This document shows, in pieces, positions 13,540-64,000 of a DNA stretch of 64,000 bases. The position numbers were made by a program, and so were the translations under genes. How positions within the stretch are numbered: position 1 is the first letter of the stretch; each line of letters begins with the position of its first letter. The stretch is from Diplonema japonicum. Its lineage: Eukaryota > Protista > Euglenozoa: Diplonemea. Below the pieces are notes generated by a model. The model saw only the letters and a program-made list of their open reading frames with translations, was not told where the DNA came from and did not search any database. The stretch lies in NCBI GenBank assembly GCA_964019335.1, contig OZ025698.1:62001-126000 (forward strand), read 5' to 3'.

Positions 13540-14230
13540 AAAAGCAGCCAGGGTTGTGTATCTCTTTGGCATCCCTGAACCATATTTTATTTGAAGTGCA
13601 TGGCAGTTAACTATTGTCACTTCTAGGGCCCACCAGAAGAGTCCGCACGAAATGCAAGCCCCTCACAGTTTTTTCACAGGGCTTCGGCCAGACCCACAGT
13701 CGAAAAGTAGCTATCGCAAACTACCGTGTTGTCATTTCCCCGGAAAGGCTCCGTTAACCCCAGCACCGCCTTTTCCACAACACTGAAATTTTCAAGTGCG
13801 TGCCCCTCGATTTTGGTGGCGTGAAAACGCAAAAGATAACCCGTGCTCACGCAGTTTAGGCAGTAGATTTTTATGCCATATCTTTTACGCTTGAGAGGAC
13901 AGTAGACCCGCAGCCCCCCAATTGCCCCGTGAAGGTACGAGTGTCTCGTCAATGCTTAAATATTTTCCTGGCACTGCTGCTTTTGCCCACTTGTCACCAA
14001 TTCTGCCCAGAAACCCTCGTATCTTCACAACACGTCACCGTTTGACCCTTCTGTGTGAGTGAAGTGGAGGCTACTTTTGATTTCCTGGTAGCGTCTCCTG
14101 GGCTTCGTGTTACTGAAAAGGGGGATTTTCATGGTCCTGTGGACCAATACGACTGCTGATTCTGGGCACGCCGTAAACCCATCGCAATGCTCAATCCCAA
14201 CGATTCTAAAGCTACAGTTTCTGTACTTTA
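13540..14230 (-). pseudogene. piggyBac-like transposase relic, 3' part (stops and frameshifts)
   Basis: RRRYQEIKSSLHF and YCPLKRKRYGIKIYCLNCVSTGYLLRF...VVCDSYFSTVGLAEAL resemble conserved piggyBac (DDE_Tnp_1_7) segments. Confidence 0.75.
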
Positions 14231-14266
14231 TTGTGGGTGGACTGATAAACAAAAAACAAAGAAAAA

Positions 14267-15871: not shown

Positions 15872-18800
15872 AACGCGGGCCATCCCCCATCAACCCCAAC
15901 AGAACACTCCACAAACCAGTCCACCCCCCAACGAAAAACCACTTGTCATGCAGCGTCAAGCGCGGACAATAAGAATGAAGCATCAAGTCAAAGAACATCA
16001 ACAACGTCAAAAACAACAGTCTCACAACCAAAACCATCACACACAAAAACATCGACAACAACATCATCAATCCCCCGCCTAGCAGCACCAAGCGCAGACG
16101 AGGAGGGAACAGGGCAAAGCCCCCCACAAACAACAACACGACCGACACTCACACAAGAGCAACAGCTCCAAAGAACACCCACACCGCACACTCCACCAGA
16201 AAGATGGAACCCGCCTACGCCATCATCGTATCGCAGACATGCAGAAGTGGCAGCCTTGATAACAGGGTACGGTGAAGAGGAAAGCGAAGAGGAGGAGTAC
16301 GCAGTAGTGTTCGAGGAGTCGGAAAAAGAGAGGAAGAAAAGAGAACGAGCAGAGAAGGTAGCGCTGGTTGCACTGGGAAACAAAAAGGCGCAGGAGCAGC
16401 CGATAACGATTGTCGAAGAGGACGCACAGACACTGAAGGTGGTGACATTCAACTGCAACAGAGGCTGGGGGTCAAGCAGGGAAAGCATCAAACAAGGCCT
16501 GAAGAAACACCAGATCGATGTATTATGCCTGCAAGAGGTGAACATGAAGAGGACAATTGAAATAGGAGGCTACAACACCTTCCAACAACCCCGCACAGTT
16601 CCAAGACAAAAAGGAAAGGCTGCGGAAGGAGGCGGAGTAGCCATTTTGGTGCGGAAGGGAATACCGACAAGGCAAGGAGAGACATACAGCGGAAAGGTCA
16701 CTGAAAAGATCTCCGTGCATGTCAGTCAGAAAGCAGGGCCCGAAATCCATATAGTGAACATTTACCGCCCCCCGATAGGCGGTGGTGATGATACGCGAAA
16801 GGAAGACTTCGTGGTGGGAGACCTGCAAGAAGGAGAGAACGTTCTGACAATGGGAGACATCAACCTACACCACGAGGCGTGGAGCGCGTTCGCAGCGCAG
16901 AGCGAGGGCGGCAGGAAGGTGATGACATGGGTCGCGGAAACGGAAAGGATAATTTGGAACGACCCACGCAAACCAACCTGGCAAAGAAATATACAACGCT
17001 CCAGCCCAGACATCGTGATCGGGCAGCCAAGGTGGCCGAGAAAATGGAAGCTGCTGGAAGGCTGGGTATCGGATCACCGACCAGTCATGACAGAAGTCCC
17101 ATACGAGAAAACCACAGAGCAAAAAGCAGCACGAAAGGTACTACAATGGCAGTGGCGAAAAGCAGACTGGACAAAGTACACATTAGACCTTGAACACAGA
17201 GCTCCCAAGGTGGAAAGGTGCAAAGACCCCAAAGAAGCGATAGCACGACTCACCGGACACATAAGAAGAGCATCCCGAGAAAACATCCCCCGCATCCCAC
17301 AGAGACCAAGAGAAGAAAGAGAGCTGTGGTGGACCGAAGAGATACGAAAACTGCGAGACGAGGAAAACACCCTGAAACAAAAGCTCGGAGAACATGGAGG
17401 GAGCGAAGAAGAAGGGGAAGAACTGCAGAGACTGGGGTGCAAGCTACGGGAACTGATGAAGAGTGAAAGGGAAACGGCTTGGTTGGAGGTGACAAAGAAG
17501 CTGGGGAACGTGGGAGGAATAGGGCCGGTGTTCCGAATGGTTAGGGCAATGGACGGAAGAGCATCCAAGACCAACACCGACGTACCCTTAGTCGTGAAGA
17601 ATGACGTTATCCACAAAAAAGCAAAGAAGGCTGAGATCCTAGGGGAGTACTTTGCATCCATAAGCAAGTCAACCCAAGGACACGGCTACAACCCCGACCA
17701 CAAACAAAGTGATCACGACGCCTCCGAAGTACCTTTCAACATTGAAGAACTGAACAACGCTCTCGGTGAAATAAAAACGCACAAGAGCCCCGGCAAATAT
17801 GGTTTGCACAATGAGATGCTGAAGCAACTGGGTCCGAAAGCGAAAAAAACACTCCTACATGTAATCAACCTATCATGGCAAGGAGGCTGTGTCCCACAAA
17901 GCTGGCGAGATGCACTCACAAAGCCCTTTCCCAAACCGATGAAGGACCTCACGGACCCCAGCAGCTATCGTCCCATCGACCTCACCAGCAACCTGTGCAA
18001 GCTCGCTGAGAGGATGATAAAGGCAAGACTCAACTACTTACTGGAAGATCCGACATCGAACGTGCACAAGCTCTGCAACACACAAGCCGGATTTCAAGCA
18101 GGCCGAACAACAATAGAACAGATTGCAGCACTCACACAGAGGCTTAAGGACGGTCAAAAAAAGAAGAAAGTCTCCTACACCATATTCCTCGACTTCGAGA
18201 AAGCATTCGACACGGTGCAAAAAGCAAAGCTAATGGAGAAGCTGACGGCCATGAAGCTCCCACCGCTGTACTTGAACTGGATAGGCGCCTTCCTACAGAA
18301 TAGACAGGCAGCAGTAAATCTGGAAGGAGAGACAAGCGACAACCGTGAGAAGGAAGAAGGCGTACCGCAGGGAACGGTGCTCTCACCGCTGCTGTTCCTG
18401 TTCTACGTGGACAACATAGCGAAAGCCCTTGAGGAGGAAGGACAAAGGGTCTTCGCATCGCTGTACGCGGACGACATGACAGCTGTGATCACCGCAGACA
18501 ACCACGCAGAAGCACAGAAAAAGGCGCAAAAGGTACTGGACACCATAGACACGTGGGCCAAAGAGTGGGGTCTGAAGCTGTCCCGCAAAAAGACGTGCTT
18601 CATGAAGACGGGCGGAAAGGAGAAGGGCGCACTGTACTTCATGGATGGCACGCAAAAAACGGAAGTGAAATATGAGAAGAATCCCATGTTCCTGGGGGTG
18701 AGGTTCGACGAAGAAGTGAACTTCAAGGCGCACGTTGAATATGTGATCACCCGACTTGAGGAAAGAATCAAGGTGATGCGAGCGCTGGCAGGCACGGAGT

Positions 18801-20165
18801 GGGGGAGTATGGCGTCCACCCTCAGGGCGCTGTATCTGACGTACGCACTGCCAGTAGTGACATATGCGCTTGGGGTGTACGGACCAACGCTGATAAAGGG
18901 AGAGATCAAGAACCTGCAATTGGTGCACAACGAAGCGGCCAGATGTATCACCGGATGCAAGCGTACAACCCCCGTCGAAGTACTGCTGAGGGTAGCCCGG
19001 CTCTGGCCAATCGAAGACATGATAGGATATGAGACATCCACATGGTACGAACGGTTCCAGAGGATGGAAGGCACCAGCGGGCACCAGGCAGCTCAAGGAG
19101 AAGGAAAGGAAGAGCGATCATGGCTACACGAGGCTCGAAAACGAGAAAAAAGCCTGAAGATGGAGCAACACCCGCGAGCGCCGCTGCACAGAAAGGCAGC
19201 CATCCCACCGTGGGAGTGGAACACGCTGGAGAGGCTGGTCATCGTGACAGAAGGCGAAGGGGTAAAGAGGCTAGAAGTAGCGAAACAAAAAACAGCAGCC
19301 CTTGAGGTAGTCGCAAAGCTACCGAAAGCCGACATCACTGTCTACACCGATGGGTCAGTCGAGGAAGGCAAGGGCGGTGCGGGTGTTGTGATAGAAAGAA
19401 CAGAGGGAGCGACGGCCGAGATAAGCGCAGGCGTCGGCGACCTATGCGACATGTGCGTAATCAACACAGCGCTTGCGAGGCTCGTGAAGGAGGACACGCA
19501 AGGGATGCAGATCAACCTGCTGACAGACTCTATGGCGTGTCTGCTGAAATTAAGACAAGGACCCGCAAGGCAACAAGAAGACATGGTGGTCGAGGCATGG
19601 CACAACATACACGCACTGACAACGAGAGGAAACCACCTCACATGCTGCTTTATCCCAGGCCACTGCGGGATAGAAGGAAACGAGAAGGCAGACCAACTCG
19701 CCAGCAACGGCAGAGACAAAGAAACAACACAGAAGATAAGCATGGGTGCGGCAAAGAACCACCTAAGAAAAGCTGGGAAGCGGGGAATATTAGCAGGATT
19801 GAACAAGGAAAAGACATAATAAGTGGGCAGGAAACACAGAAGCACCAAAGAAGATGGAAGGGCTGAACAGGAAAGAGGAAGTGCTGATCAACCAGCTAAA
19901 GACCGGGCACCATGACCTGCTAAAGGTGGGTTACGCCGAGCAGCGAATTTGCGTGAAGTGCGGCCCCAACACGAAGCGAACCCTCCAACATCTCTTCCTA
20001 GACTGTCCGTCATCCAAAGCAAGCAGGGACAAACACTTCGACACCCTGACGCTGAGACACATCCTTGTGGAGAACCCACGAAAAGCAATCCAATACCTCG
20101 AAGACACCGGGGACCTGCCCCCCTCCGCAACAACTCCACAACAACCAACTAACCTGCCGAAGTAG
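15872..20165 (+). pseudogene. Family D ORF2 (APE-RT-RNase H-CCHC), frameshifted near 19810 and missing the RNase H SxRAE motif
   Basis: Frame is open from 15872. VVTFNCN, CLQEV, MGDIN, SDHRP, YRPIDL, LDFEKAFD, GVPQG, YADD, VYTDGS, FIPGHCGIEGNEKAD. The C-terminus (LKTGH, CVKC...HLFLDC) continues in another frame (19854-20165). Confidence 0.8.
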
Positions 20166-20358
20166 CAAGCCAATCAGAAGGCGGCTGAGGCACTAAAGAT
20201 TCATTCAGAATCCCGAGATCCCATCCCTGATCCCCAATCCTGTTTCTCGCAGAAGCAGAGAGCACAACCCCCCACCACAGCAGCCGACGAGACAGACGCA
20301 GCAGTGAAAATAAAAAAGCCCCCCTGAACAAGTTTTACCCCACCCCTATAACGTGATA

Positions 20359-20397
<39 letters not shown>

Positions 20398-20448
20398 ACT
20401 GAGGTCCGGCACCCACAGTAGCCAAAAAAAAAAAAAAAAAAAAAAAAA

Positions 20449-21120
20449 GTGTAAAGTGCCAAACAACCAGCAAAGCTTGTGGAATGAGAACACCAGTACG
20501 GTCATGAGTACTCGGGCAACCGGGTGAGCGTCTCGAGACACTTCCAACCCACCTAGTGGGTACGGCCTTAGCAAGTCGAAAAGGAAGTGGAATTTAAAAA
20601 AAAAAAAAGAATCCGAGTAAGCGGTGGAGTCTTGGGTCGAAGTTTTATCAATCTCAGCGTCCTTTTGCTTGTTTGTCTCTTCTTGGATGACGTCTGTGAG
20701 CTTCCTATAAAAGAACCGAAGGAATAACCATTTTGCGTCGTCAGGTTTCTGCGTACCACGGGACAGCTTTTTTTCTCCCCACTGGCCTATTTTATGGTCT
20801 CTATGGGTACCAACTCCCTTACCCATGAAGGTTGGACCTCGTCCGTAGCTGTTTTGGCTTTACCTTTGCGTTTTTTGGGAACAATTTGGACACAGTATGC
20901 ACACCCGTTATTTTGCGTTTTTAGCCTATCTACTCGGATTTGGGACCCACTTGGTGGGTGGATAACAAGGTTAAGTGACGCAGCGCAGCATGAAATGCAG
21001 TTGAAAATAACTCCTCATTATAGTCGTTCTTGGAGATCCAGGGGTCGAGTGGCCGAAAAAGTACTTAGAGAAAAAAACGATTTTTCAAAACGACAAATAT
21101 TTGCGCCTTGGAGTGTTATG

Positions 21121-21126
<6 letters not shown>
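20449..21126 (-). mobile_element. piggyBac-like element 5' end with TTAA|CCC terminus and transposase N-terminal relic
   Basis: Plus strand reads ...gtgttatGGG-TTAA (TTAA at 21123-21126). Minus-strand FLRFFYRKLTDVIQEETNK resembles the piggyBac 'LFF..E....I...TN' segment. Confidence 0.65.
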
Positions 21127-21158
<32 letters not shown>

Positions 21159-21823
21159 AAAAAGAAAAAAAAGGAATAAATAGTGCTTCGAACAATCCTC
21201 CCTTCACTCCCCTCCCCTAGTGTATTTTCGTTCCCTGCCAAAAAACCCCTCCCTCCTTTTAAGGCGGTACAGTGTATTGAAAAGAGAAAAAAGAATAAAA
21301 ATAAAAAAGAAAAAGAAAAAAAAAAAAAAAAAAAAAAAAAAAACTATATAAATAAACAACAGAAAGAAAGAAAAACTATTCAGGCCCCAACGACAAACAA
21401 AAACCGGCATGGGGACGGCTCGGGGCCGGTCGAAGGCAAGAGTCGCCCCGAAATCCTTAAGACGATCCTTCCTATTGAGGGGGATGCGCTACCAGGGGAA
21501 AGGAAAAAAGGTGGCCATGGGCAGGACAGTCGAAGGAATATACTAGGGGGCCAAGAGGCAGACTGACTGCGCCATAGGCGATACAAAAGGAGTAGATTTT
21601 GACCAAGAATGAATGGAACAATGGAATATCTGAAAGGAAGTATACACACACTCCCCTTACTGAATACCGTCTTGCTTCACCCTGTGATTTGCCAGGCACA
21701 ATTATGTCACCCTGTGCAACACAGACTTTTGATGTTTCAAACCTCTTTATCTTCTCTCCACCTTTTGTCTCCCCCACTGGCAGTGTAACAAATATTATTA
21801 TTATTATTAAAAAAAAACAGGTG

Positions 21824-45804: not shown

Positions 45805-46563
45805 AGTGAGTAGGGTGAGATCAACATTTCAATTCTTTTAGTGCTTACGTTCCCTTCCCCTCTCTTCCACTCCCTCTCATCCTTTTCTTTATCATCATCC
45901 GGCGTCTGGCCTTTCTCTTACCAGTATGCCCGTCCCCTTTTAAACTTTTAAATTTTTAAAATTAACATCCTCTTGTTATCGTGTGCCCTGACATTGTAGT
46001 CAAAAACGGATGGCCCGGCCTACTCTGAAGTTGCCCAGATGAGTCCTCTCATCTTCGCACGAACGAGTGTGGTACGGCCATCCCCTCCCCCCGCCAGCCG
46101 GAGTGCAGCGGGGAGAGCAAATGCTTCCCCTATCATCCCCATGCGCACACGCACACTCGCTTCCCCTTTTGATTTTGAGAGATTTTACTCTCACCCTTTC
46201 ATGTTTCGCTCAATGGAGCAAATCCCTCTCGAGGGGGCGACCGGGGCCAGTTCCGGTCACCAGAGGTCCCAGTTGAGAAAAACGACGAACTGGGGTCAAG
46301 GTCCCCGTCCGAGTCACGTAGGTCTACGCGGCTTGGAATTAAAGTAATTCAGCCCTCTTCGGCTGTTCCAAACAGGTGCACGGGTTGGCGGAGTCCACAG
46401 CTCCATCTGATTGCAGAAGAACTGGTCTTCGCCCTCCCTGTAATATTTCCATGCTTCCCTTCACCTTTCCCCTTCCCAGGTGTTGCTCCCCCATGGTGGC
46501 ACCTATTGGTATTTTGAAAAAAAAAAAAAACAGGGCGAAAAAGAAAAGAAAAGAAAAGAAAAA

Positions 46564-47517
46564 ATGGGCAAGAAGAAAGACAAGCACAAGGAGAAGGCAA
46601 AGCCGGAAGGGAACGGGGCCAGCACGCAGCTGGCCCAGTCCAAGGCCAGGGAGGAGCGGCGGGTGGAGAGGATGCTCCGCAGCGCGGGAGCAGCCGGGGA
46701 GCTGGGGCAGCTCCTGACACCGGAGCACCGGGAGAAGATGACGGGGGTGGTCACCGTAATTGACCTCCTCACGCCCGACGCCGCCGCCGCTACAGCCGGC
46801 CCAGCGACACCTGTCGCCTCCACCCCGACCGGCTCCGTCAAAAGGCCGGTTTCGCCTGACGCCAGCGTCGCCACCCCGACCTCCAGCAAAAAAGCTAGGA
46901 GGAAGGCCGCCAGAGCCGCGCGCGCTGACGCTGCCGCCGAAGCCGCACACATAGCTGACGCCACACACCCCCTCGAAGCCGCACGCACTGCGGCCGACGT
47001 CGAACTCGCGGGAATCGCTGCTGATTTGGAAGCTGCACGCGAGTCGGCCGACGTGGTAGCTGCAGAAATAGCAGCTAAGATGAAGGCTGCGCAGGAGGTG
47101 GCTGATGCTGCTGTTGTCAAAATGGCAGCCGAGACGGAAGCTGCACGCGTGGCTGGTGTGGAGGCTGCTCGCAGAGCAGTCGAGGCAGAGGAGAAGGCTC
47201 TGCGCGAGCGGTCTACTGCACGACTTGCGGCAGAGGAGAAGGAGGCTGCGCGTGCTGCGGCCGAGATGAAAGCAGCCGAGGAGAAGAAGGCTACAGCCGC
47301 AGCCGCTGCAGCCGAGAAGAAGAAAGCCGCAGCCGCCGCCGCCGCCGAGAAGAAGGCCGACGCCGAGAAGAAAGCAGCAGCCGCCGCCGCCGCCGAGAAG
47401 AAGGCCGCAGCCGCCGCCGCCGCCGAGGAGAAGGCCGCCGCCGAGAAGAAAGCCGCAGCCGCCGCCGCCGCCGCCGAGAAGAAGGCCGCTGCCGACGCCG
47501 CCAGGAAGAAAGCTGCA

Positions 47518-47548
<31 letters not shown>

Positions 47549-49485
47549 AGAAGGAGACCGCAGCCGCAGCCGCCGCCGCCGAGGAGAAGAAGAAGGTCGC
47601 AGCCACCGCCGCCGCCGAAAAGGAAGCCGCCGCAGCCGCTGCCAAAAAGGAGGAAGCTTTGAGGTTGGCGGCCGCCAAGAAGGCAGATGCCCAGAAGGTC
47701 GAGGACGAAGCAGTCGCGAACGCTTCCGCCAACGCGTCAACAGACCAAGGCACGCTCCTCCTCAGCTCAGACTCTGACACCAGCTCTGGCCCTGAGGAGA
47801 TGGAGGACGACCCTGCCCCTGCCCCTTCCACAACCCCGCGATGGGACCTGGTGCCAGACACATGGGACGCCCCGATCTACACTAACGTGTCCCCCCCGAC
47901 GGAAACATCCCGCGCTGTCATTGCGCTCGACGATCCCTCCGGAATGGGGGTCGTGTGCTCCGCGTTACCTACGGCATCCATCACCTTTGTCCTTATGACA
48001 GAGGTCCCCGGTGTCACCACCCCCAGCGAGATTGTCATGGTCTCTGGGTCGCGCGCAGTGAACAGGAGGGTCCACGTCTCCACGTTCGGGCTGGACCCCC
48101 CCACCTACACCCCGCCTTCCACCTTCAACAGCGGATCGGAGGTCGTCTACGTCTGTGTCAGTGCAGACAGCCTGAAGGAGGCGAAGGCCAGGGTCCTGGA
48201 GCTCGCCAAGGCTCAGGGCGCGGTGGTGGAGGATCGTGCGGTCTTCCGCCCAAGGAAGTTCGGTGAGGAGGAACCGCGGGCGAGGCACTGGACCCACGAG
48301 GTGGGGCTGCGCCTGCAAGCAGCACACGTCCACGCCGTCCTGCGCCGGTCCGGGGACGGGTGCATGATCCGGACGACGGAGAGACGCGGGGGGTACGCTT
48401 ATGTACCCATCGTGGCGGAAGGGAGGGCGGATGCCTTTCGGATTGCGGGGACGCTGGGTGGGTTGTCTCTCGGGGTGGCGCACCGTAAGGGATGGACTGT
48501 GCGGTGCCTACCGGAGACGGAACAGCGGCTCCGGGAAACCCTCGCAAAACTGCGTACGAAGCGCAAGTTTTTGCTCACCGGGGCCCCGCCGTCCATCACC
48601 AGGGCGGCCTTCGATGAAATGATGGACCACATCGGCTGGAAACCATCCTCCGTCCTGCGGCGCACGCAGACGATGTTCCAGGGCACGAGGCAACTCGTGT
48701 TCTTCATCGTCGTCGACAGCCCGCCCCCGAAGTCCAGGACGTGGCTCCTTGGGGGGCGCCTTGTCTGCCTCCGTGATGCGGACGACCACCCGACCGTCAA
48801 GCCGCCCCCTCTCATCAACAGGACGACACCTGCATCTGCACCTGCGCTTGCAACGTCCTCGACCCCGGCACCCACATCTTCTCATGTACCTGCACCTGCG
48901 CCTACACCTGTACCTGACCCGGCACCTGTATCGGCGTCGACACCCTCGGGGACTGACCCTGCGGTGAAAGCAACTGGGCTTCCTCCCACCAGCCCGTGGG
49001 CGTCCATACCGAGCTCGGTGGCTCCCCCCCAGCTCGACACTGTGACGTCCCCTACACCGCCCCGCAACGTGTCTGGGGGAAACAAGGAGGGGGTCCCTTC
49101 CGGGTCGCCTGAGGTCGCCGCTCTCACTGAGCTCGTCGCCACGCTGAAGGAGTCGATCGTCGGGCTGCAGAGGACGATCGACTCTCAGCAGGAGATGATC
49201 TCCGATCTGCGGACGACGCTCCGCCTCCTCCTGCCGCAGGCGGCCACGCTGACGACGGGAACGGCAGTGCCGCGGGACCCTACACCGGGGGCGACGACGA
49301 CACACGACAGTGTATGGAAAGGGAAGGGGAAGGGGAAGAAGGGGGCTCCTCCTCTCGCTACGACCTCTGAGGCTGCGGTGACGAACCTGGGTACGAGGGG
49401 GCGGGCCAGGTCGTTCGCGGAGACCAAAGATCTCTTCACCAATGGGGTCAAGGGGCGCTCTGCCTCCATGGGTCCATCCAATTGA
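46564..49485 (+). CDS. A2 ORF1; ends in a UGA in frame with ORF2
   Basis: Near-identical to A1 ORF1, with a different number of AAAAAEKK repeats. Confidence 0.85.
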
Positions 49486-52400
49486 AGGGGCCCCGCAGAA
49501 CAGGGGGGGCAGCAGATCTACGACCATGCTCCCTCTCCTAGTCTCCCTCGCATCCTCCCCAGGAGACTCCTACCTCTCTGTTTCTTCACCGACTTTTCTG
49601 CACTGATCCCCACCCTACTCGGGAGGATGTCCGTCAGGGACCTGCTGGGGCTGCTTGGGCTGGTCGAAACAAACCCTGGCCCACCCAAGAAGCTGCCGCC
49701 CCCGTCGCCTAAGGGTCTCAAGGTTGTCTCGTGGAACTGCAACGGCCTCGTTGCGAAATGGACCGTCGTATCTCGCCATGCTGACTTCTTGTCGCTGGAC
49801 ATCATCATGATACAGGAGACGCACCTGAGGGAAGGGCACGACACGCCACACCTGCCTGGGTACAGGTCATACAGGAGGGATCGGTTGACACCGGTGACTG
49901 ACGGCACTGCGACGAGGGGTGGTGGTATTGTCACGTATGTCCGCGACGATCTTGCCTCGGAGGAGGTTCCGCACGTACTCCCGGCTGGGGACTGTGTCAC
50001 TGAGAGACTGGATGTGAGGATCTCCTGCGAGAAGCGTGAGCCGATCACTCTCTCCAACGTTTACCTTACACCGGTAAGCGCGAGCAGAGGCACGAGGGAC
50101 CCTGAGTACCTGCGGCCTGGCAGCCTTCCCATGGGGAAGAACACAGTCATAGCGGGTGACTTCAATGCTCATCACAGCTCCTGGGACGCCACGGTGACGA
50201 CGCCGAACGAGAGGGGGAACGTGGTCAGGGACTGGCTGGACACCCACGGGTACACCGTCTACAACGACCGCAACGAACCGACGAGGGACTCGTCACGACA
50301 CGTTCTGGACCTGGTTGTGGGGCGCTGCGCGAAGCTTGAGCCGAAGACGCTGGGCACGTGGGGCTCCGATCATAGTCCCGTATCCTTTCACCTGCCTCTT
50401 GAGGACGTCTACCGTTCGGAGCGCCCCTTCCCCACCTGGAATTTTAAAAAAGCCAGATGGGATGACTACACTGCTGCTGTTGCCCGCCTGCTTGCTGGTG
50501 TTGACACGGCGGATCCGATTGACTCTGTCACGAAGGGGTTTACACAAGCCCTTTTGACTGCGGCGAACGACCACATTCCCCTCTGTGGGATGCGACGTGG
50601 CCCGACCCCCTGGTGGACTGCTGAGCTCGAGGACGCCTTCGAAGAGCGGAACACCCTGCGCGAACTCCTGCTTCAAGAGGCGGACGTGGTGGAGGAGTAC
50701 AGGGCGAAGGTGAAGGAAGTCAACCGACTCCTTGACGAGACGAAGCGTGAGGCATGGGGAAGGATGGCGGCCGACCTCAGCCGGAGCAAGGACCTCGGGG
50801 CTGCGTTCAGAGCGGTGAAGAAGCTGGACGGCAGGCACCGAAAGACACACCTTCCTGTACTCGAGGGAAGATTTGTGTCGGACAAGGCGAAGGCCGACCG
50901 GCTGGGGGCGCACTTCGCTAAGCTCTACGGCAGGCGTGGTGACGGGAACTCGAAGGACGCCGCTCCTTCTGCAAGCAGACTCGGGTGTCAAGCGTTCACC
51001 GTGGACGACCTCACCCGCGGCCTGAGAAGGATGAAGACGCGCAGCGCGGCCGGGGAAGACGGAATCTTCTCGGAGATGCTCCTACACCTGAACTCGGACT
51101 CCCTCGGTGTCCTCCTTCTACTCCTCAATCGCTCCTGGCTGATGGGTGTCGTCCCCGGTGCCTGGAAGAAGGGAGTGATCGTCCCGGTACCGAAACCTGG
51201 AAAAGATGCGACTCTCTTGGCTTCCTACCGGCCGATCTGCCTGACCAGCTGCCTCTGCAAGCTGCTGGAGAGGATGATCGAGGAGAGGCTCACGTTTCTT
51301 CTTGACGCGGACGGGACGGGAGTCGAGGGACTCCACGACAGCCAGGCTGGTTTCAGACGCGGCCGCTCCACGGAGGAGCAGGTGGCAACCCTCACTGAGT
51401 GCATGTCGAGGAACAAAGACGATCGACGTCTCTCGGCCGCTCTGCTGTTCGACTTCTCTTCTGCCTTCGACCTGGTGCCCCATGGTGCCCTGCTGGACAA
51501 GATGCGAGGGAAGGGTCTCCCCGAACCCTTCGTGGAGTGGACGCGGTCCTTTCTATGCGGCCGTACTGCTGCGGTCACGATTGGACGGTCGAGGGGGTCG
51601 ACGACGAAGGTGCGACGGGGTGTCCCCCAGGGCTCTGTCTTGGGTCCCATCCTGTACACCATCTACGTCGACGAACTCGCCAGGAGACTGGAGGGACTGG
51701 CGGACGTCTCGGTGCTCTACGCCGACGACGTGGCGGTTGTGATCTCCTCTGGACAAGGGGACGTGGCTGGGCTGGAGCGGAAGGCGCAGGCAGTGGTGGA
51801 TGCGGTTGAGGACTGGTGCAGGGAGCGTGACATGCTGCTGAGCACGTCCAAGACGCAGGCAGTCTGCGTCCCCCCCCAGAAACGTCTCGGGGTCTACTTC
51901 ACTTCGTCACGAGTCCCCCTTCAGCCAGGTGCCTTCCAGAACCCGCTCTTCGGCCTGGGGGTGAACGCCGATGGCACGATCTCCGGGGACCAGGAGCTGG
52001 CGGGCCTTCAGGTTGTGGAGGCGGGTGGTGTGCGGATCCGCTGCGTGCGGGACATGCATGCAGCCGTGCGACGGCCCGACGTGGACTACGTTGCGGCCCG
52101 TCCCCTGCCTCTGTCTGAACACGCGAGGTACCTTGGGGTTACGGTGGACTCTGGGCTCACGTTCGGTGAACACGCACAGGACATCCTACGGCGGGCCAGC
52201 AAAAGGCTGAGGGTGCTGAAGCTCTTGTCCGGCACGTCCTGGGGCAGCAAGAGGGACACTCTGCGGTCTCTCTACGTTACGTACATCCTCCCGCTGCTGC
52301 GCTACTGCATGGGGGTCTACTACAGCAGGCTCGATGATGTCGGGAGGAAGGACCTGGCTGGGCTTCACCAGGAGGCGGCGGTGCTGATCACGGGCTGCTG

Positions 52401-53775
52401 GAGTGGCTCCGGAGGGTACAAGCTCCTAGCTGAGGCAGGACTGCTTCCCCTCGAAAGAATGGCGGAGGGTGCTGCGGCGACGATGACGGCGAAGGCCTTC
52501 TGCTGGCAGTCTTCCCCGGTTCACAGGGAGACGGTCAAGCTGAAGCAGGCGAACAGGCTGGGGTGTGGGTGGCTGCGCTCTGGCTACCAAGCACTGCGTC
52601 GATGCGGGTTGGAACCAAAGGTGCACTTCGAGTACCTGTCGGCTACGCCCCTGGCGGCCCCGTGGCAGACAGGCATGGTCGACTTCAGGACTGACCTCCC
52701 CGGCGGGGTCACGCGATCGTCGCCAGACGCGGACAGGCGGAAGGCGGCCGAGGCTGCTCTTGCGGCTCTCCCCCCGGGCATCCATGCCTACACGGATGGC
52801 TCGGTTGTACAGGTCGGACAGAAGGCGAAAGGTGGCTCTGGGGTTTATCTGCAGCTGCCTCCCCCCCTGACCCCTGTGTCTGTGTGCCATGGCGTCAACG
52901 ACTTCTGTTCATCTTTTCGGGCAGAGGGCATGGCTGTGAAAACGGCGCTGGATATGGTGGCTACCCTCCGAAAAACACACCCTTCGCTGGCGAAGTCCCC
53001 GCTGTCGATCTGCACCGACTCCCTCTCCCTCGTCGAGCAGCTGCGAGCTGGCCCAACGCGACAGAGGGAGAAGCTCGACCACCAGACGTGGAGCCGGCTG
53101 GTGTCCGCGGCGCGCACGCAGGGGACACCGGTGGTCCTCCAGTTTGTGCCCTCCCACTGTGGGGTGGACGGGAACGAGAAGGCTGACGCTCTGGCCGGGG
53201 AGGGAACGAAGCGGAAGCAGGACAGGCCCTCCCTTGACTACCGATCAGTGAGGGCCCTGGTGCGACGGTGGGTGGTGCGGAGGTCCACGGAGCTCATAAC
53301 ATCCCTCGCCCACAACTACGCGGTGGCGACCGAGCTTCGGTCTGCGCACTTCCCCCTTGGCTTCCCCAGACAAGCTGAAACGGTCATCTCGCGGCTGCGG
53401 ATTGGTCACTCGGCTCTCTTCTTCGGCTTCCTGCAGACTGCTGGCCCGAACAGGAAGCACAAGGGTGTGCTCCGGTGCCCAGCCTGCCACGCAGCACCGA
53501 TGTCCAGGGAGCATGTTGTCGGTGGGTGCCCTGTGATCGGGAGGGGGGCGATCGACACTCCTGCTGGTACTCCCTCCCTAGCGTTCTCCCTGTCGAGACG
53601 CGTGACCCAGATCTACGACCTCATTGTTGAGTCTGGCCTGCTCGCCTGGTCACGCTCCGGACTGTTCACCTCGCCATCATCCCTGGCGTCTACAGACGTC
53701 ACTGCACCTTCAAACGTGCCGCCTCCTCCTCCGGTCTCTCTTGACGCCGGTCCCGCGGCCCCCGTGCTGCGCTAA
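49486..53775 (+). CDS. A2 ORF2: linker + 2A-like motif - APE - RT - RNase H - CCHC (first ATG 49627)
   Basis: Near-identical to A1 ORF2; intact. Confidence 0.92.
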   Translation, partial: RGPAEQGGQQIYDHAPSPSLPRILPRRLLPLCFFTDFSALIPTLLGRMSVRDLLGLLGLVETNPGPPKKLPPPSPKGLKVVSWNCNGLVAKWTVVSRHADFLSLDIIMIQETHLREGHDTPHLPGYRSYRRDRLTPVTDGTATRGGGIVTYVRDDLASEEVPHVLPAGDCVTERLDVRISCEKREPITLSNVYLTPVSASRGTRDPEYLRPGSLPMGKNTVIAGDFNAHHSSWDATVTTPNERGNVVRDWLDTHGYTVYNDRNEPTRDSSRHVLDLVVGRCAKLEPKTLGTWGSDHSPVSFHLPLEDVYRSERPFPTWNFKKARWDDYTAAVARLLAGVDTADPIDSVTKGFTQALLTAANDHIPLCGMRRGPTPWWTAELEDAFEERNTLRELLLQEADVVEEYRAKVKEVNRLLDETKREAWGRMAADLSRSKDLGAAFRAVKKLDGRHRKTHLPVLEGRFVSDKAKADRLGAHFAKLYGRRGDGNSKDAAPSASRLGCQAFTVDDLTRGLRRMKTRSAAGEDGIFSEMLLHLNSDSLGVLLLLLNRSWLMGVVPGAWKKGVIVPVPKPGKDATLLASYRPICLTSCLCKLLERMIEERLTFLLDADGTGVEGLHDSQAGFRRGRSTEEQVATLTECMSRNKDDRRLSAALLFDFSSAFDLVPHGALLDKMRGKGLPEPFVEWTRSFLCGRTAAVTIGRSRGSTTKVRRGVPQGSVLGPILYTIYVDELARRLEGLADVSVLYADDVAVVISSGQGDVAGLERKAQAVVDAVEDWCRERDMLLSTSKTQAVCVPPQKRLGVYFTSSRVPLQPGAFQNPLFGLGVNADGTISGDQELAGLQVVEAGGVRIRCVRDMHAAVRRPDVDYVAARPLPLSEHARYLGVTVDSGLTFGEHAQDILRRASKRLRVLKLLSGTSWGSKRDTLRSLYVTYILPLLRYCMGVYYSRLDDVGRKDLAGLHQEAAVLITGCWSGSGGYKLLAEAGLLPLERMAEGAAATMTAKAFCWQSSPVHRETVKLKQANRLGCGWLRSGYQALRRCGLEPKVHFEYLSATPLAAPWQTGMVDFRTDLPGGVTRSSPDADRRKAAEAALAALPPGIHAYTDGSVVQVGQKAKGGSGVYLQLPPPLTPVSVCHGVNDFCSSFRAEGMAVKTALDMVATLRKTHPSLAKSPLSICTDSLSLVEQLRAGPTRQREKLDHQTWSRLVSAARTQGTPVVLQFVPSHCGVDGNEKADALAGEGTKRKQDRPSLDYRSVRALVRRWVVRRSTELITSLAHNYAVATELRSAHFPLGFPRQAETVISRLRIGHSALFFGFLQTAGPNRKHKGVLRCPACHAAPMSREHVVGGCPVIGRGAIDTPAGTPSLAFSLSRRVTQIYDLIVESGLLAWSRSGLFTSPSSLASTDVTAPSNVPPPPPVSLDAGPAAPVLR

Positions 53776-54222
53776 GGGATCGCCCCGTGTGTGTGTGTTA
53801 AATGGAATGTTGTGTTTCCCACTTTCCTTTCCCTTCCCTTCCTTTCCCTTCCCTTCCCTTCCTTTCCCTTCCTTCTCCTTCCTCTCACTGTTTCCCATTT
53901 CCCCTTTTATTTCACACTCACCAATGATTCGCTCAATAGGAGCAATACCTCCCTGGGGGGCTTTCCGCCGGAGGTTCCAGCCAAAGAAGGACATCCAGCT
54001 GGAAGGTAGGCCCCCGTTTTTCTCTCACTTGACTGAGGGAATAATGTAATTCAGCCCTCTTCGGCTGTCCCAAAGCAGAGCACGGGTTGGTGGGGGACCA
54101 GGGCTCCTCCTGCTTGCAGAAGCCTGGTCCTTTGCCCTCCCTATTTCCCCATGGTTTCCCTTCACCTTTTTTTCCCTTTTCTCAGGTGTTGCTCTCCATG
54201 GCGGCCCTGCATTGGTATTTTG

Positions 54223-54255
<33 letters not shown>

Positions 54256-54258
54256 AGG

Positions 54259-54329
54259 GCGTAAATGGTCTAGTGGTAGAATGGCTCCCTGCCACGGAGT
54301 CGGCCCGGGTTCGATTCCCGGTTTACGCA
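54259..54329 (+). tRNA. tRNA-Gly (GCC)
   Basis: Acceptor stem GCGTAAA/TTTACGC plus A; D-loop TAGTGGTA; anticodon arm GCTCC-CTGCCAC-GGAGT; T arm CCGGG-TTCGATT-CCCGG; T-run terminator immediately downstream. Confidence 0.97.
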
Positions 54330-55619: not shown

Positions 55620-56050
55620 TAGTACGGTCACTCCGTGCCTTCCCTTGTCTCTGCTGCCGAAAAAGCGGAAAGTTGTTGCCTTCTTAGATCGGCAGCGGGG
55701 CTCGCCAGCGAAGGCGCGTTATTCGGAGGGCGGCCACCTTCAGCGCCGTTTTCACAGCCAGACGAACAGAAGTCATTGCGAAGCCGTTTTCGACCCAATT
55801 GCATGTCCAGGGCGTGCACTCACTTCCTGCCCTGGTCGCAGCCCCCCTCGACACAGGGGTTGCGATCCCGTGTCTGCTGGTCACGACTCGACGTGGCACT
55901 ACGCATCCCGCCAGGAACAGGGCTTTCTGCTGCAAACCCAAGGGTTCGGGGACAAGTCCTATCCGACCGGCAGCCCTGCTCGCTGACTTTGTGGGGGCCG
56001 GGGCCCTTTATCAGTCGACTGCCCTGCATTCCTACAAGTAGGAACAATTG
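55620..56050 (-). pseudogene. Decayed family A/B-related RNase H-region fragment
   Basis: Minus strand reads ...LAVKTALKVAALR..., with nucleotide similarity to A ORF2 (cagcgccgttttcacagcc, gaacagaagtc) and many indels. Confidence 0.6.
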
Positions 56051-56602
56051 GAAACAACCCTACAATGTAGGAGTGCCAGCCCGGCGTGCTACGAGGGCGA
56101 TAGGCTATGCAAGGCTTCACAGACCTCGCATCCTATGATTTAGTTTCCACCTTTTCCATTTTCTTTCCACTTTTTAAACTTTTTATTCCCTTTCGTGGGA
56201 TTCCTTTTCCTACATGTTTTCGGTCCCGGGTATGACGTTAAACTGCGCCCGCCGACGCGTCTGGACCAGCACTTCCTGGCGACCAGGCCGTCTTTTTTCT
56301 TTTCCTTTTTCACTTCGTTCTGTTATTTTCATTATTCCTTCCGACGATAGACTGATACGAGCCATGGAAGCAACCTCTGCTTAATTCCTGTTACGTGGGA
56401 GGCTCCTCTTGAGGATGTCAGTCACCTTTATTTTTTTATTCGACTCTCTGTTTTCGTATGCAGTATTTATCCTTTTTCGCCTTTTTTATTTTACTTTTTC
56501 GCTTCTTTATTCTAACTTGCAGCATCATTTCAGATGCCTGTGGAGTGATATTTTTTCCTCCTCTCTTTTCACTCTTCGTCATTTTCTTCACTCACTAGGG
56601 GC

Positions 56603-57818: not shown

Positions 57819-57889
57819 TGCGTAAACCGGGAATCGAACCCGGGCCGACTCCGTGGCAGGGAGCCATTCTACCACTAGACCATTTACGC
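57819..57889 (-). tRNA. tRNA-Gly (GCC), identical to 54259-54329
   Basis: Exact reverse complement of the first copy, followed on the minus strand by the TTTTTT terminator and the same ggtttggtt flank. Confidence 0.97.
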
Positions 57890-59820: not shown

Positions 59821-60362
59821 TGTTTTTTTTTTTATAATAATAATAATAAATGAACCACTGACGTGCGAAGCAAAGGCTGGGGGGGGGGACAGAACAGGTG
59901 GACCAAGGGTCTCCCTGTATCTAACGAAAGGGGGAAAGGAAAGGAATGTGATAACCTTGAAACTTCCGCTAAACTATCCATACGTACCGAGGACGGAGGT
60001 GGGGCCGGTTCGTGGGCTCCAGTGTTCGCGACTTCGCCCACCTCCGTGACCCCGGCAGCTCTCCAGCCCGCTTCCCAAGCCAGCACCCTTCGGGCGAACC
60101 TCCGGGTTTTTGAGGAGTGGGGTACCTCGTCCGTGCTCGCCCTCACGAGCGGCACACTGGCACGGAGGCATCCCCTTCAGCCAGCTTTGTTGGGCGGCAG
60201 AGCCTTAGAAAATTCAAAACAAAGGGAAATGATACGGGGGGATGTGTGAAGGGGCGGGGAAAGGTGAAGACAGAAGTTGGGGTGCACGACAGGGTGATAA
60301 TGGGAAACACAGGGGGAGGGGGAGAGGGTTCACTAGTACTTTTTGGTTCACTTTTTTCTGTT

Positions 60363-60398
<36 letters not shown>

Positions 60399-60443
60399 CT
60401 ACGTCCTGCGATTGCGGTCAGCGGCTCGGCGGTCGTGAGAGTC

Positions 60444-63400
60444 TCAGATGAGGTCCATCCTCTTCAGGTAGGAGGCGGTTTCACTCACCCTCATTGTGAG
60501 CATCTCCTTCGTGGTCGTGGGGATGTCATCCCCGAAGATCTCTTCGCGGACCTTGTCTCCAGCTGGGCACCCGATCAGCAGATGGTGTCTGTCCTGGATC
60601 GAATGGCACGAGAGGCAACGTATGTCATTCTGGACGGGTTTCGACAGGAAACCGCAAGTCAGGTGGCTCCTGCCCGTTCGCAGTCTCGTTATCTGTACCT
60701 CATCGTGTCTGCAGGACAGTTCCTTCAAGGGGAGGTACCTCGCGCCGATCTCCTCTCGGTACTTCTTGTCCCGACCCGTCTTCTCCCACGAGGCTGCCCA
60801 GTCGCGGTTCACCGATCTCTTGATGAGGCTCTTTGTGGTCATCAGGTCCGTCGGTCCGTCCGGTGTCGACTCCTTTGCGGCGCGTTTGGCGTGTCGGTCG
60901 GCTTGCTCGTTACCTGGTAGGCCGCAGTGTCCGGGAACGTACTGGATGATGGTGGAGAGGCCTTGGCGGTCAAGCGCGTCCAGCCATTTCCAAGCCAGCA
61001 GTTCCTCCTTCTGCCTCATCTCTCTGTGGCCCTGCATCAGTCTTCTGATCACCGACTGGGAGTCCGAGCACAGCAGCACTACTCCGGTCGTCACACCTTG
61101 TCTCCGGGTATGGTACAGTGTCAATTGCAGCCCCAGGTTCAGCGCTTTCAGTTCGCATCGGTAGGCCGAAGTCACTGCTCCTCCGCTCTTGCGTGCCTGC
61201 TTCGGTGTGTCAGACCCGATCCTTATCACAGCTGCCGAACCGCCGTTCCTGTGTCCGGTGACTGACCCGTCGGTGTAGACGATCGCATCTGGGATGCCGT
61301 GCCTCCTGATCGATTCGAAGGCCGCTCGGAGTTTGAGACTTTTTTCGTCCTTCTTGTGTACCTTGCGGACTAGGTCGGGGTGGAACAGGACTTTGGGTTG
61401 GACCCATGGAGGGAGCTGCAGGTCTGCGCTCTGAGTGACTGAGTGGTGTGGTAGGTCTTCGCGTTCCGGCATCCCGTGACTCTTCGCCAAGTCGAGCGCG
61501 GTGTTTCGCCAGCTTTTCCCGTACCACATCTGACCCCCGGATATCTTTGTTGCCTTCTCCGCTGTTGTCCCCGGTTGACGCTGTGCCTTCTCGTAGAGCA
61601 CCAGGGTGTCGTGTTCCAGCAAGGATTCAATCTCCCAGATGCCCGCCTCTGACCTGGTCACCGTCGCGGAAGTCTTGTCGAAGCATCCCGTTATCAACCT
61701 CGCTGCTGTGTATTGTAGCGAGTCGAACTCGGCCAGAGCAGCATGTCCCACGAAGTTGCCGTAAGCACCGAGACAGTAGCGCAGAACCGGTTGGACGTAC
61801 GTCAGGTACAGCGTCCTTAGGGTGTGCTTGCGGCAGCCCCACCTTGTTCCGGCGAGTTTGCGCAGCAGGCGAAGACGGCTGTTGATCTTTCCCTTCACCT
61901 TCTGCACATGCTCGTGGAAGTTCATGCTTTCGTCGAAGGTGACGCCAAGATATTTAGCCTCGCGTACCACCTTGACTTTCGCCCCACTCGAGGGGAAGCG
62001 GGCGTTGATGAGGTTTGCGAGACTGTCGTGCGAGTTCCAGAACTGTCCCTCTACCGGCATGAACTCTGTCTTTTCCTGGGACAGTTTCATCGAGAACGTC
62101 TCGCACCATCGCTCCGTGAGGCTCACCGCGCGTTGCACCTTCTTGTTCAGCTCGGCAGGACTCCCCGCCTCCAGCACTATCGCTATGTCGTCTGCGTACA
62201 CTACCGCGTCGATTCCAGCCTTCCTGTACAACCTGGCCAGGTCGTTGACGTAGATGGAAAAGAGCTGCGGGGCCAGGATGGTGCCTTGGGGTACGCCCCC
62301 TGTCATTGTCTTCACGCAGCCGTGTTCCCCGTTCACACAGACGGAGGCTTTACGTTGGTCGAGGAAAGAGGTGATCCATTTCACGAGCTTGGGAGGGTAT
62401 CCGTCGCCTATCAGCTTTGCGATCACTCCCTTGTGCCAGACTGTGTCGAAGGCTCCTTTGAAGTCGAACAGCAGGAGACCCCCCAGACCTTGGCTCAGTC
62501 TGACACTTTTGAGCTTTGAGGCGGCGTACAGCACGTTTTCCTCCGTGGACCTCCCTTTCCGGAAACCCGCCTGCGATGTGTGCAATTGCCTTACCCGTCC
62601 TGTGTCCTGCAGGGAGCACATCCTGTCCTTGACTATTCGCTCCAACGTCTTCACGATGTTTGACGTCAGCGCGATCGGCCTGTACGAGGCGGGTTCGGAT
62701 TGGTCTTTGCCCTTTTTCATGAGGGGGATGATGGAAGACCGCCTCCATTCGGCAGGGACGACACCGGTCTGGAGGGATGAGTTGTAGAGGAGGAGTTGAA
62801 CTTCCCTGGCCACCGGTCCCAGGTACTTCAGCATTTCGTTGTAGATGCCGTCTGGGCCCGGAGCCTTGCCCTTCTTCAGCCTTCGCAGCACCGAGTCCAG
62901 CTCGTCCTTCGTTACCAGGGGGAAGTCGTTGTCTGTCCCGGGCTTCGCGTCCTTCTTGATGGTGGTGATCACTTCCTCCGACTTGGCAGTCGTCCTTGGG
63001 GAGCAGGCCCTCGCGTAGTGTTCGACGAGTACACTGGCCTTCTCCCTGTCGGTGGTGGCGATACCGTTTCCTCGTCGGAGCGGGGCTATTGGTGGCTTCT
63101 CGCTGCGACCGTCGAATCTGCGGATGACCGAGAAGGCTTGCGTCAGGTTTCCGTCCTTGGACAACTTCTTGGTGTAGTCGCCCCAGGCAGCCTGCTTCCC
63201 GCTCGTTATCGCCCTGTCCAGCTCAGCCTCCATCGCCGCTAGACGTGCCAGGTCTTCGTCGTTCCCGTCGTGATCCTCGGACAACAGCTTCGCCTTCAGT
63301 GTGCTTCGTCGCCTTGCGAGTGCGTCAATCTCGTCGTTCCACCAAACCTTCCCTTTCTTCTGTCCTTTCCTGGGGACGCACGATTCGGTTGCCGATAGAA

Positions 63401-64000
63401 GAAGTGTGCGAAACTCAGCGTTTAGCCTTATCGGGTCTCTGGCCCTGAGCAGCCTGCTGCACTTTTCTTCCATCGTCTCCCTGTACGCGCTCCTTGCCTC
63501 CTTCCCCCAAGAGTAGAGTACTCTTCTGGTCGGTTGGCTGACTCCCCCTCTCAGACTGAAGAACATCGGAACGTGGTCTGAGCCCATTGCTGGCAACGTC
63601 CTCCAAGAAGATTTGTCGAACTCTGCGCCGCTCATTACCATGTCCGGAGAGGTTGGGTTTCCTGACGGGTTCAGGATCGTGGCTTCGCTGCTCTTGTTCC
63701 ATGTGCTGTAGCCCCATCGCAGCATCCGGCTGTGCAGTATTTCTCCCAGCTTATTCGGTGTGCCCCTTTTGTCCCACATCGTGTGGTGGGCGTTCATGTC
63801 ACCGGCGATGATGGTGTAACTGTCATGAGGCAGCTCTGCCGGGCGGAAATATTTCTCGGGGGGTGGTCTGTCGTCGCCGTCTCTACCCGTTGTCGGAGGC
63901 AGGTACAGGTTGACGAGTCTGTACGGCTTCCGGTTGGGCAGCGAGATCTCTACGTCGAGTCTTTCCGTCACGTCGCTGGGTTTCTGAATAACTTCGATCT
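60444..64000 (-). CDS. Non-LTR element ORF (APE-RT-RNase H-CCHC), related to family C; 5' end lies beyond the window
   Basis: TERLDV, AGDMNAHH, SDH, YRPIAL, FDFKGAFD, GVPQG, YADD, YTDGS, YVPGHCGLPGNEQAD, CLSC...HLLIGC; followed on the minus strand by an A-tail (~60365-60398) and a further module ending in (TTA)n at ~59835. Confidence 0.9.
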   Translation of the reverse strand, partial: IEVIQKPSDVTERLDVEISLPNRKPYRLVNLYLPPTTGRDGDDRPPPEKYFRPAELPHDSYTIIAGDMNAHHTMWDKRGTPNKLGEILHSRMLRWGYSTWNKSSEATILNPSGNPTSPDMVMSGAEFDKSSWRTLPAMGSDHVPMFFSLRGGVSQPTRRVLYSWGKEARSAYRETMEEKCSRLLRARDPIRLNAEFRTLLLSATESCVPRKGQKKGKVWWNDEIDALARRRSTLKAKLLSEDHDGNDEDLARLAAMEAELDRAITSGKQAAWGDYTKKLSKDGNLTQAFSVIRRFDGRSEKPPIAPLRRGNGIATTDREKASVLVEHYARACSPRTTAKSEEVITTIKKDAKPGTDNDFPLVTKDELDSVLRRLKKGKAPGPDGIYNEMLKYLGPVAREVQLLLYNSSLQTGVVPAEWRRSSIIPLMKKGKDQSEPASYRPIALTSNIVKTLERIVKDRMCSLQDTGRVRQLHTSQAGFRKGRSTEENVLYAASKLKSVRLSQGLGGLLLFDFKGAFDTVWHKGVIAKLIGDGYPPKLVKWITSFLDQRKASVCVNGEHGCVKTMTGGVPQGTILAPQLFSIYVNDLARLYRKAGIDAVVYADDIAIVLEAGSPAELNKKVQRAVSLTERWCETFSMKLSQEKTEFMPVEGQFWNSHDSLANLINARFPSSGAKVKVVREAKYLGVTFDESMNFHEHVQKVKGKINSRLRLLRKLAGTRWGCRKHTLRTLYLTYVQPVLRYCLGAYGNFVGHAALAEFDSLQYTAARLITGCFDKTSATVTRSEAGIWEIESLLEHDTLVLYEKAQRQPGTTAEKATKISGGQMWYGKSWRNTALDLAKSHGMPEREDLPHHSVTQSADLQLPPWVQPKVLFHPDLVRKVHKKDEKSLKLRAAFESIRRHGIPDAIVYTDGSVTGHRNGGSAAVIRIGSDTPKQARKSGGAVTSAYRCELKALNLGLQLTLYHTRRQGVTTGVVLLCSDSQSVIRRLMQGHREMRQKEELLAWKWLDALDRQGLSTIIQYVPGHCGLPGNEQADRHAKRAAKESTPDGPTDLMTTKSLIKRSVNRDWAASWEKTGRDKKYREEIGARYLPLKELSCRHDEVQITRLRTGRSHLTCGFLSKPVQNDIRCLSCHSIQDRHHLLIGCPAGDKVREEIFGDDIPTTTKEMLTMRVSETASYLKRMDLI

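Follow-up and report, generated by a model that had tools for sequence, protein, structure and literature searches.

How do LINEs (long interspersed nuclear elements) of several families come to stand one behind another before the same tRNA gene, and how does the gene stay intact? The question is raised by a 64,000-nucleotide stretch of DNA of the marine protist Diplonema japonicum (assembly GCA_964019335.1, contig OZ025698.1, positions 62,001 to 126,000 of the forward strand), called the window here, whose own positions are used throughout. Self-comparison and lists of open reading frames (ORFs) show on the plus strand a head-to-tail stack of about 40 kb, in the order D, A0, C, A1, C′, B and A2, followed by a tRNA-Gly(GCC) gene. 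These seven insertions of the left array belong to four families, whose ORF2 are 30–74% alike. A mirror array on the minus strand consists of E, a fifth family, then A3 and a second tRNA-Gly gene. The species label is matched by a EukProt protein 100% identical to residues 480-1000 of A2 ORF2. The copy next to the first tRNA gene, A2, is a young LINE with APE, RT and RNase H domains, and the features around it are as follows.

46517..46530, plus strand: poly(A) tail of element B (A14), which may be partly duplicated target.
46531..46537, plus strand: 5′ copy of the direct repeat CAGGGCG (tRNA positions −4 to +3).
46538..54254, plus strand: element A2, a full-length LINE with a 5′ untranslated region (UTR) of GAAAA repeats, ORF1, ORF2, a 3′ UTR and an A32 tail (54223-54254).
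46564..49485, plus strand: A2 ORF1, 973 aa.
49486..53775, plus strand: A2 ORF2, in frame after a single TGA, with a 2A-like motif, APE, RT, RNase H and a C-terminal Cys/His motif.
54255..54261, plus strand: 3′ copy of CAGGGCG, overlapping tRNA nucleotides 1-3.
54259..54329, plus strand: tRNA-Gly(GCC) gene 1, intact, with a T-run terminator behind it (ARAGORN and Rfam).

A2 is bounded by (A)14-CAGGGCG on the 5′ side (46531-46537) and by (A)32-CAGGGCG on the 3′ side (54255-54261), exactly where an earlier note on this DNA had read them. The same note took the final GCG for the first three bases of the tRNA, and both ARAGORN and Rfam agree in placing the start of tRNA-Gly(GCC) at 54259. With the base composition of the window, a given 7-mer is expected at a fixed place with p = 1.2e-4, and the last four letters of CAGGGCG alone with p = 6e-3. 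We also considered CAGGGCG as part of the A family's own ends and rejected it, as it is absent from the ends of the other A copies. Within the window it follows one of the four A-family tails, the other three being followed by TAGG, C and G, and the 5′ end of A1 lacks GGCG. It is not an element consensus, the case that by the earlier note would have refuted its reading. Since neither end of the other A copies holds the repeat, it is very likely a target-site duplication. We are highly confident that this duplication is genuine, reaching position +3 of the tRNA and leaving the tRNA intact. The A2 feature is thus real, and the first description of it was over-generalised in part.

A1 and A2 are more than 99% identical (54 substitutions in 7527 aligned bases) and the window contains a 200-N gap, so that an assembly artefact, or unequal recombination between near-identical copies, might be thought to have made the array and the repeat. 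However, each copy has its own substitutions and its own junction, and recombination would not place tRNA nucleotides 1-3 at the 5′ end of A2. The internal deletion of A0 is also present outside the assembly: its joint, 50309 to 52516 in A2 positions, is seen in run X1 of the public contigs. Records fitting the (A)n-G-tRNA junction of A3 are found in X2 and X4, as inferred from two mismatches. We therefore consider an artefact or recombination very improbable. The public contigs further show that the A family is multicopy and support the 3′ flank of tRNA gene 1 in three of four runs. Among the records listed for the four runs, none shows the exact (A)n-CAGG junction of A2 across 54249-54254, and A-rich records can be filtered; among the joints listed, from which rows at repeats were dropped, none skips A2. 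These gaps at the A2 junction count neither way, and the A2 junctions are read from the window itself.

The remaining members of both arrays, and the second tRNA gene, are as follows.

14197..21817, plus strand: element D, outermost in the left array, with tail (TTA)n(A)9 and an ORF2 that is frame-shifted near its end.
14197-14233, plus strand: spliced-leader copy at the start of element D.
21824-24094, plus strand: A0, an internally deleted A copy flanked by CAGGTG (21818-21823) and TAGGTG (24095-24100).
24099-30855, plus strand: element C, with ORF1 from 24155, ORF2 at 25595-29980 with a canonical 2A-like motif, and tail (TTA)n(A)8.
30859-38506, plus strand: element A1, full length, preceded by junction CAG at 30856, with an A23 tail that has no CAG partner.
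38508-39184, plus strand: C′, a 5′-truncated copy of the C 3′ UTR, preceded by one junction C and ending in (TTA)n(A)10.
39187-46530, plus strand: element B, with junction CA at 39185 and a second CA at 39238 (5′ junction duplicated).
57819..57889, minus strand: tRNA-Gly(GCC) gene 2, identical to gene 1, with about 15 nt of 3′ flank shared.
59820-57891, minus strand: A3, a 5′-truncated A copy with 5′ junction (A)11-CA (59822-59821) and 3′ junction (A)18-G followed by the tRNA.
59823..64000, minus strand: element E, running off the window, with tail (TTA)n(A)11.

The junction letters reported earlier away from A2 (CAG at 30856, CA at 39185, CA at 59822-59821 on the minus strand, CAGGTG at 21818 and TAGGTG at 24095) are all present. 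The wider statement that all A/B junctions share one target applies to one side only: all five 5′ junctions start with CA, but on the 3′ side CAG follows only two of five copies, A2 and B. The others read TAGG (A0), a single C followed by C′ (A1), and (A)18-G followed by the tRNA (A3). Throughout both arrays, C, CA, CAG or CAGG follows an A-run. The number of letters matching CAGGGCG is four at D/A0, zero at A0/C (TAGG), three at C/A1, one at A1/C′, two at C′/B, seven at B/A2 and two at E/A3. These nested prefixes of 1, 2, 2, 3, 4 and 7 letters bear out the view that the position of the second nick varies. Neither the C in front of C′ nor the CA in front of A3 is what their source elements have at these places. 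Elsewhere in the window, the 53 other A-runs of at least 8 are followed by C in nine cases, by CA in four and by CAG in none, and all four sites with A≥8 then CAG are element junctions. The summed prefix match of six junctions (A2's own excluded) was never attained in 200,000 draws from A≥8 runs, and 29 of 200,000 draws from A≥6 runs attained it; the junctions inherit letters from each other, so these figures overstate independence, and at worst there are two independent loci. The (TTA)n runs before several junctions are the 3′ tails of the other LINE families (C, C′, D and E) and not a host target.

All four (TTA)n tails end in A8–11 plus CA(G), and the A/B tails range from 13 to 32 A. C, D and E could thus have CA(G) as a fixed 3′ terminus and be the only families to target the tRNA gene, while A and B would home to the (TTA)n tail or carry junction letters of a donor array in their RNA; the letters would then not originate from a second nick. 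Such nesting, or transport of letters in RNA, is in line with the 5′ junctions of A1 and B, which are duplicated with CA(G) included, with the spliced leader of D, which shows that 5′ ends of LINE RNA are copied to the end, and with LINE-free tRNA-Gly paralogues, which have no CAG. It is contradicted by A3 and C′, which are 5′-truncated and yet carry CA and C, impossible from a tag on full-length RNA. Moreover, GGCG at the 5′ end of A2 matches the tRNA junction only, and D and C/E, about 70% different in ORF2, would be required to end in the same letters. We regard this explanation as improbable.

The duplicated 5′ junctions take in upstream target letters, over about 23 bp in A1 (30856-30881) and about 53 bp in B (39167-39270), as from a repeated template jump.

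The explanation that we prefer, with a probability of roughly 0.5, is that the ORF2 endonuclease prefers the sequence (A)n-CAGG, cut between the A-run and the C, and that the tRNA flank seeds this sequence, which every new tail then renews. The founder (D on the left) would have inserted beside the tRNA gene at a site without an A-tract, and its tail would then have made (A)n-CAGG. Later families would recognise this sequence through the shared ORF2 endonuclease and prime reverse transcription there. For A2, the bottom strand would be nicked at −4 or further up the A-run and the top strand after +3. Most insertions would land beside the tRNA and push older copies outward, and the position of the second nick would set the 1 to 7 target letters left at each 5′ junction. 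Repeated insertion of this kind explains why the prefixes are nested. The outermost position of D, the only full-length element with a broken ORF2, fits this order. It is established that non-LTR elements insert by target-primed reverse transcription and make variable duplications (PMC5391098). The landing site is common to families C, D and E as well as A and B. For the A family the target can be rebuilt from both flanks in three of three cases, each giving (A)n-CAGG (CAGG-GCG for A2, CAGG-TG for A0 and CA+GG-CG for A3); the rebuilding is our inference and covers two related loci only.

The earlier note placed the first nick within the T-strand of the A-tract. This is not borne out, because a poly(A) tail hides the difference between a nick in the tract and one at its border with C; the 3′ junction of A3, which has no C, places the nick for that copy outside the A-tract. 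The cut for A3 was nearly blunt, and the tRNA side lost its C. Likewise, the proposal that each insertion renews the site holds for the left array, but renewal failed in one of the two tRNA-adjacent insertions, where A3 lost the C; the site would usually, not always, be restored. A3 differs from A0 at 4 of 1666 positions and from A2 at 13 of 1664. With A3 closer to A0, the second tRNA was hit independently, and we rejected the pair of A3 and tRNA gene 2 as an inverted copy of A2 and tRNA gene 1.

D has no A-tract on its left side, and three LINE-free tRNA-Gly 5′ flanks in the public contigs end in TGTAAG (X1), CCGTAA (X4) and ATGTA (X3). As both D and these paralogues lack an A-tract, the tract is made by the elements and was not needed for the first insertion. 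CAG(G) would be the native 5′ flank of this particular tRNA-Gly pair. The three LINE-free flanks share GCCAA-N(6-8)-GTA, possibly an upstream RNA polymerase III (Pol III) element.

Flanks on both sides are available for a duplication in two copies only, exact in A2 and probable in A0 (CAGGTG against TAGGTG). The flanks of A0 are probably a 6-bp duplication of the D/C junction. C itself begins with TGGG, as does D directly after the spliced leader, and the TG in both A0 flanks fits a junction of this composition. Later junctions read CAG and not TAG, so the C-to-T change of A0 did not occur at the tRNA-side site. A0 was therefore probably inserted within the array, 6.7 kb or more away from the tRNA, where it likely used a left-over (A)n-CAGG junction. 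A0 is stitched from three pieces of A (about 50670-50712, 49782-50316 and 52516 to the end) and, with one joint seen in run X1, may be a multicopy non-autonomous form.

Several observations weigh against a preference for (A)n-CAGG. The evidence comes from two loci of one assembly, and both loci may descend from one duplication, as the tRNAs are identical and share 3′ flank. Neither an A-tract nor CAG occurs in the three LINE-free flanks, the left flank of D is unlike them, and no empty allele was seen among the sequences at hand; CAG could be the terminal sequence of the (TTA)n-tailed families. A1 shows no real duplication, its tail being followed by one C and then C′, and A3 shows none beyond at most one A. 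The A0 duplication holds one mismatch, its extra TG would arise by chance in 1 of 16 cases, and the A family's own 3′ UTR also contains CAGGTGT. Finally, three shorter AAAACAGG sites in the window carry no insertion.

The main rival is Pol III tethering, in which TFIIIC/TFIIIB on the tRNA gene would direct the cut to 1-4 nt upstream of +1 whatever the sequence, and CA(G) would be the remains of an inherited flank. Such tethering has been proposed for TRE5-A of Dictyostelium, and the spacing of NLTR-A suggests it too. An array abuts each of the two tRNA genes of the window, at −4 or −1 and in the orientation of the tRNA. The founder D needed no A-tract, and pushing out alone yields nested prefixes. 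There are also precedents: the RNase H-bearing Dp_NLTR-A lies 2-6 bp upstream of tRNAs (PMC5006619, in part), and TRE elements form TRE-TRE tandems, with B-box dependence of TRE5-A (PMC5391098, in part). Against tethering, A0 apparently lies inside the array, far from the tRNA, and the elements encode two unrelated types of ORF1, whereas the tethering of TRE5-A is ascribed to its ORF1. Contigs of the A body have a depth of 559-1072 in run X3, where the tRNA core has 224.5 and single flanks have about 15-31. This is a weak hint that there are more A copies than genes for these tRNAs, though depth does not equal copy number. Tethering appears to us rather unlikely, if a serious candidate.

The proteins bear on this choice. 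Pfam finds APE, RT and RNase H in one ORF, the ORF2 of A2, B, C and D. ORF2 identity is 74% between A2 and B, 32% between A2 and C, 30% between A2 and D and 42% between C and E; C′ differs from C by 13 substitutions in 661 aligned bases. The five ORF2 families fall within one 18-tip clade together with Diplonema and Flectonema proteins (FastTree support 0.99), in a midpoint-rooted tree of 240 sequences without named-clade references, built from 275 RT regions of 310 proteins after cluster duplicates were dropped. ORF1 is present in A, B, C and D, with 438-973 aa. The ORF1 of A2 is homologous to that of B and matches no Pfam family, and A/B and C/D ORF1 show no detectable mutual likeness and so represent two unrelated types. 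Unrelated ORF1 types combined with a single ORF2 clade point to ORF2 as the shared determinant. Matches of ORF1 in the protein atlas reach at most 0.82 and are RRM-like, a lead only, and the atlas clusters that hold ORF2 offer no informative taxa. A PDB search with the APE domain returned AP endonucleases only.

A single TGA, with the frame kept, separates ORF1 from ORF2 in A2 (49483-49488), A1 (33776-33781), B (41494-41499) and D (15869-15874), and element C has an A-rich spacer between them instead. Read-through, or re-initiation at a Met before the 2A-like motif, is possible at this boundary. The motif is canonical in C (GDVEQNPGP) and variant in A and B (GLVETNPGP; 49660-49686 in A2, ORF2 residues about 59-67); none was found in D, and E is cut by the window. 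No ribozyme family was detected in the A2 3′ UTR at E up to 5, and an Rfam scan of the window returned only the two tRNAs.

The D spliced-leader copy (14197-14233) matches the leader 'Euglenozoa 14' at 35 of 37 bases (PMC3795323), so D was copied from a trans-spliced RNA. According to the available part of PMC12621601, the tract preceding 3′ splice sites in D. japonicum has A as its most frequent base and the introns end in CAG, figures that were measured on cis introns and not on trans-splice sites. An A-rich tract ending in CAG means that the renewed (A)n-CAG junction looks like a host acceptor. The 5′ UTRs of A and B, at about 30 nt, leave no room for an internal promoter. It is conceivable, and we put it forward as speculation, that in a promoterless clade living in multi-family arrays anchored at tRNA-Gly the (A)n-CAG junction is endonuclease target and splice acceptor at once. 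Each copy would then rebuild the landing site and gain a spliced-leader addition site from its upstream neighbour, and target choice would be tied to polycistronic RNA processing. A pyrimidine tract with AG and then (G)TG also lies 15-45 nt before the tail in A2 (54160-54222) and in the matching 3′ UTR ends of B, C, C′, D and E. This AG could instead serve as the trans-splice acceptor for the next element.

Among known systems, Dp_NLTR-A of Dictyostelium purpureum works alike, as an RNase H-bearing non-LTR element just upstream of tRNAs, and the narrow distance from +1 recurs at both tRNA genes of the window (−4 and −1; two loci). The Diplonema elements differ in belonging to Euglenozoa, another supergroup, and in having five families at one site; their duplication reaches into the tRNA, whereas the part of PMC5006619 available mentions none for NLTR-A. 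TRE5-A and TRE3 of D. discoideum are likewise tRNA-associated APE LINEs that form tandems at a used tRNA gene and do not insert into each other (PMC5391098 and PMC5006619, in part), and such tandems make a reusable landing site known in principle. In the same excerpts, TRE5 lies about 50 bp upstream of the tRNA, APE and RT are the only domains described for its ORF2, and its insertion is B-box dependent and little constrained by sequence; the Diplonema arrays lie at 1-4 nt and their junctions carry a sequence signature. The likeness to NLTR-A and TRE is one of insertion mode, drawn from descriptions and not from RT homology.

Ingi/L1Tc of trypanosomatids resemble the array elements in APE-RT-RNase H, a poly(A) tail, duplications and a euglenozoan host (PMC5814959, PMC12278014 and PMC3708506, in part). 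They too form tandems at hot spots, namely RHS genes, with L1Tc tandems sharing a 9-nt duplication (PMC7563717, in part). Their 2A-like motif before APE is GD(V/I)ExNPGP (PMC3708506, in part), which C has in canonical form and A and B as a variant, and a motif of this kind also occurs in other clades. Unlike them, Diplonema A, B, C and D have ORF1, which Ingi-clade elements lack according to the excerpts of PMC3708506, and the A2 5′ UTR is 26 nt of GAAAA repeats, too short for the 77-nt Pr77 promoter/ribozyme described for Ingi/L1Tc. L1Tc transcripts are described in the same partial sources as unspliced, whereas element D begins with a spliced leader, and these sources, as far as available, do not mention tRNA targeting. 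No named ingi or L1Tc protein occurs among the 120 + 120 RT matches listed. With two Ingi features failing (absence of ORF1, and Pr77), the array elements are called Ingi-like here and are not filed as Ingi/L1Tc members.

Fixed cut sites in or beside multicopy RNA genes are also used by R1, SART, TRAS and Dewa, though Dewa targets the spacer of tRNA-Leu arrays, unlike the Diplonema elements, for which a preference is proposed and not a strict specificity. In tRNA genes, that for tRNA-Gly in Perkinsus among them, Dada generates duplications of 6-7 bp, but it is a DDE transposon and inserts inside the gene (both from the available part of PMC3706591). In the open literature as far as accessible, with subscription papers and Repbase outside the search, we found no LINEs described as targeting tRNA genes, either in diplonemids or elsewhere in Euglenozoa. 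Transposon analysis is deferred in the genome paper on D. papillatum, and a search of the text supplements of that paper yielded nothing on LINE targets (PMC10161547).

Wider searches add little. The tRNA 5′ pattern had no match in metagenome contigs and none in genome contigs, and the two viral contigs that matched are unrelated. The loci of RT relatives carry no tRNA in 80 metagenome and 12 viral cases; one of 94 loci has tRNAs, and this is one of the pattern matches (L002). One of 80 genome-contig RT loci has a tRNA-Thr 2.5 kb upstream of the RT. The 160 metagenome and genome-contig RT loci share no more than 38% identity with the clade, a distance too great for them to bear on tRNA association, and the nearest named relatives are diplonemid. 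Many prokaryote genome bins (L095-L174) hold eukaryotic LINE ORFs, some on megabase contigs, which is likely host contamination.

Several features of the window lie outside the arrays. The two tRNA-Gly genes face each other across 3.5 kb (54330-57818), at the convergent switch of the arrays. Repeats of high contig depth lie in this spacer, as does a relic, 80 bp long and on the minus strand, of the RNase H region of A (55686-55760). A LINE-type ORF at 253-4290 on the minus strand (element G) has APE and RT and is about 24% alike to the array RTs; it was rejected as kin of the array for want of RNase H. Remnant F (11201-12792) was rejected as an array member, with a 1.4 kb spacer and a tail followed by G. 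Between these, at 5134-8518 on the minus strand, lie what by eye we take to be host genes. One resembles a Rab small GTPase and has a short intron, another encodes a ubiquitin-like/ankyrin-like protein, and the product of a third resembles a membrane adenylate cyclase.

Dictyostelids already offer a precedent for the general strategy, so the surprise is limited. These arrays would mean that non-LTR retrotransposons came to target tRNA genes on one more independent occasion, in a supergroup for which our literature searches showed no case. The duplication at A2, in copying tRNA nucleotides 1-3, puts the second-strand nick inside the tRNA gene and leaves the gene intact. In their 1 to 7 letters, the graded junctions preserve where the second nick fell at one site for several endonucleases that are only 30-40% alike, and the choice between direct sequence reading and Pol III tethering becomes testable with short duplexes and the small APE domain.

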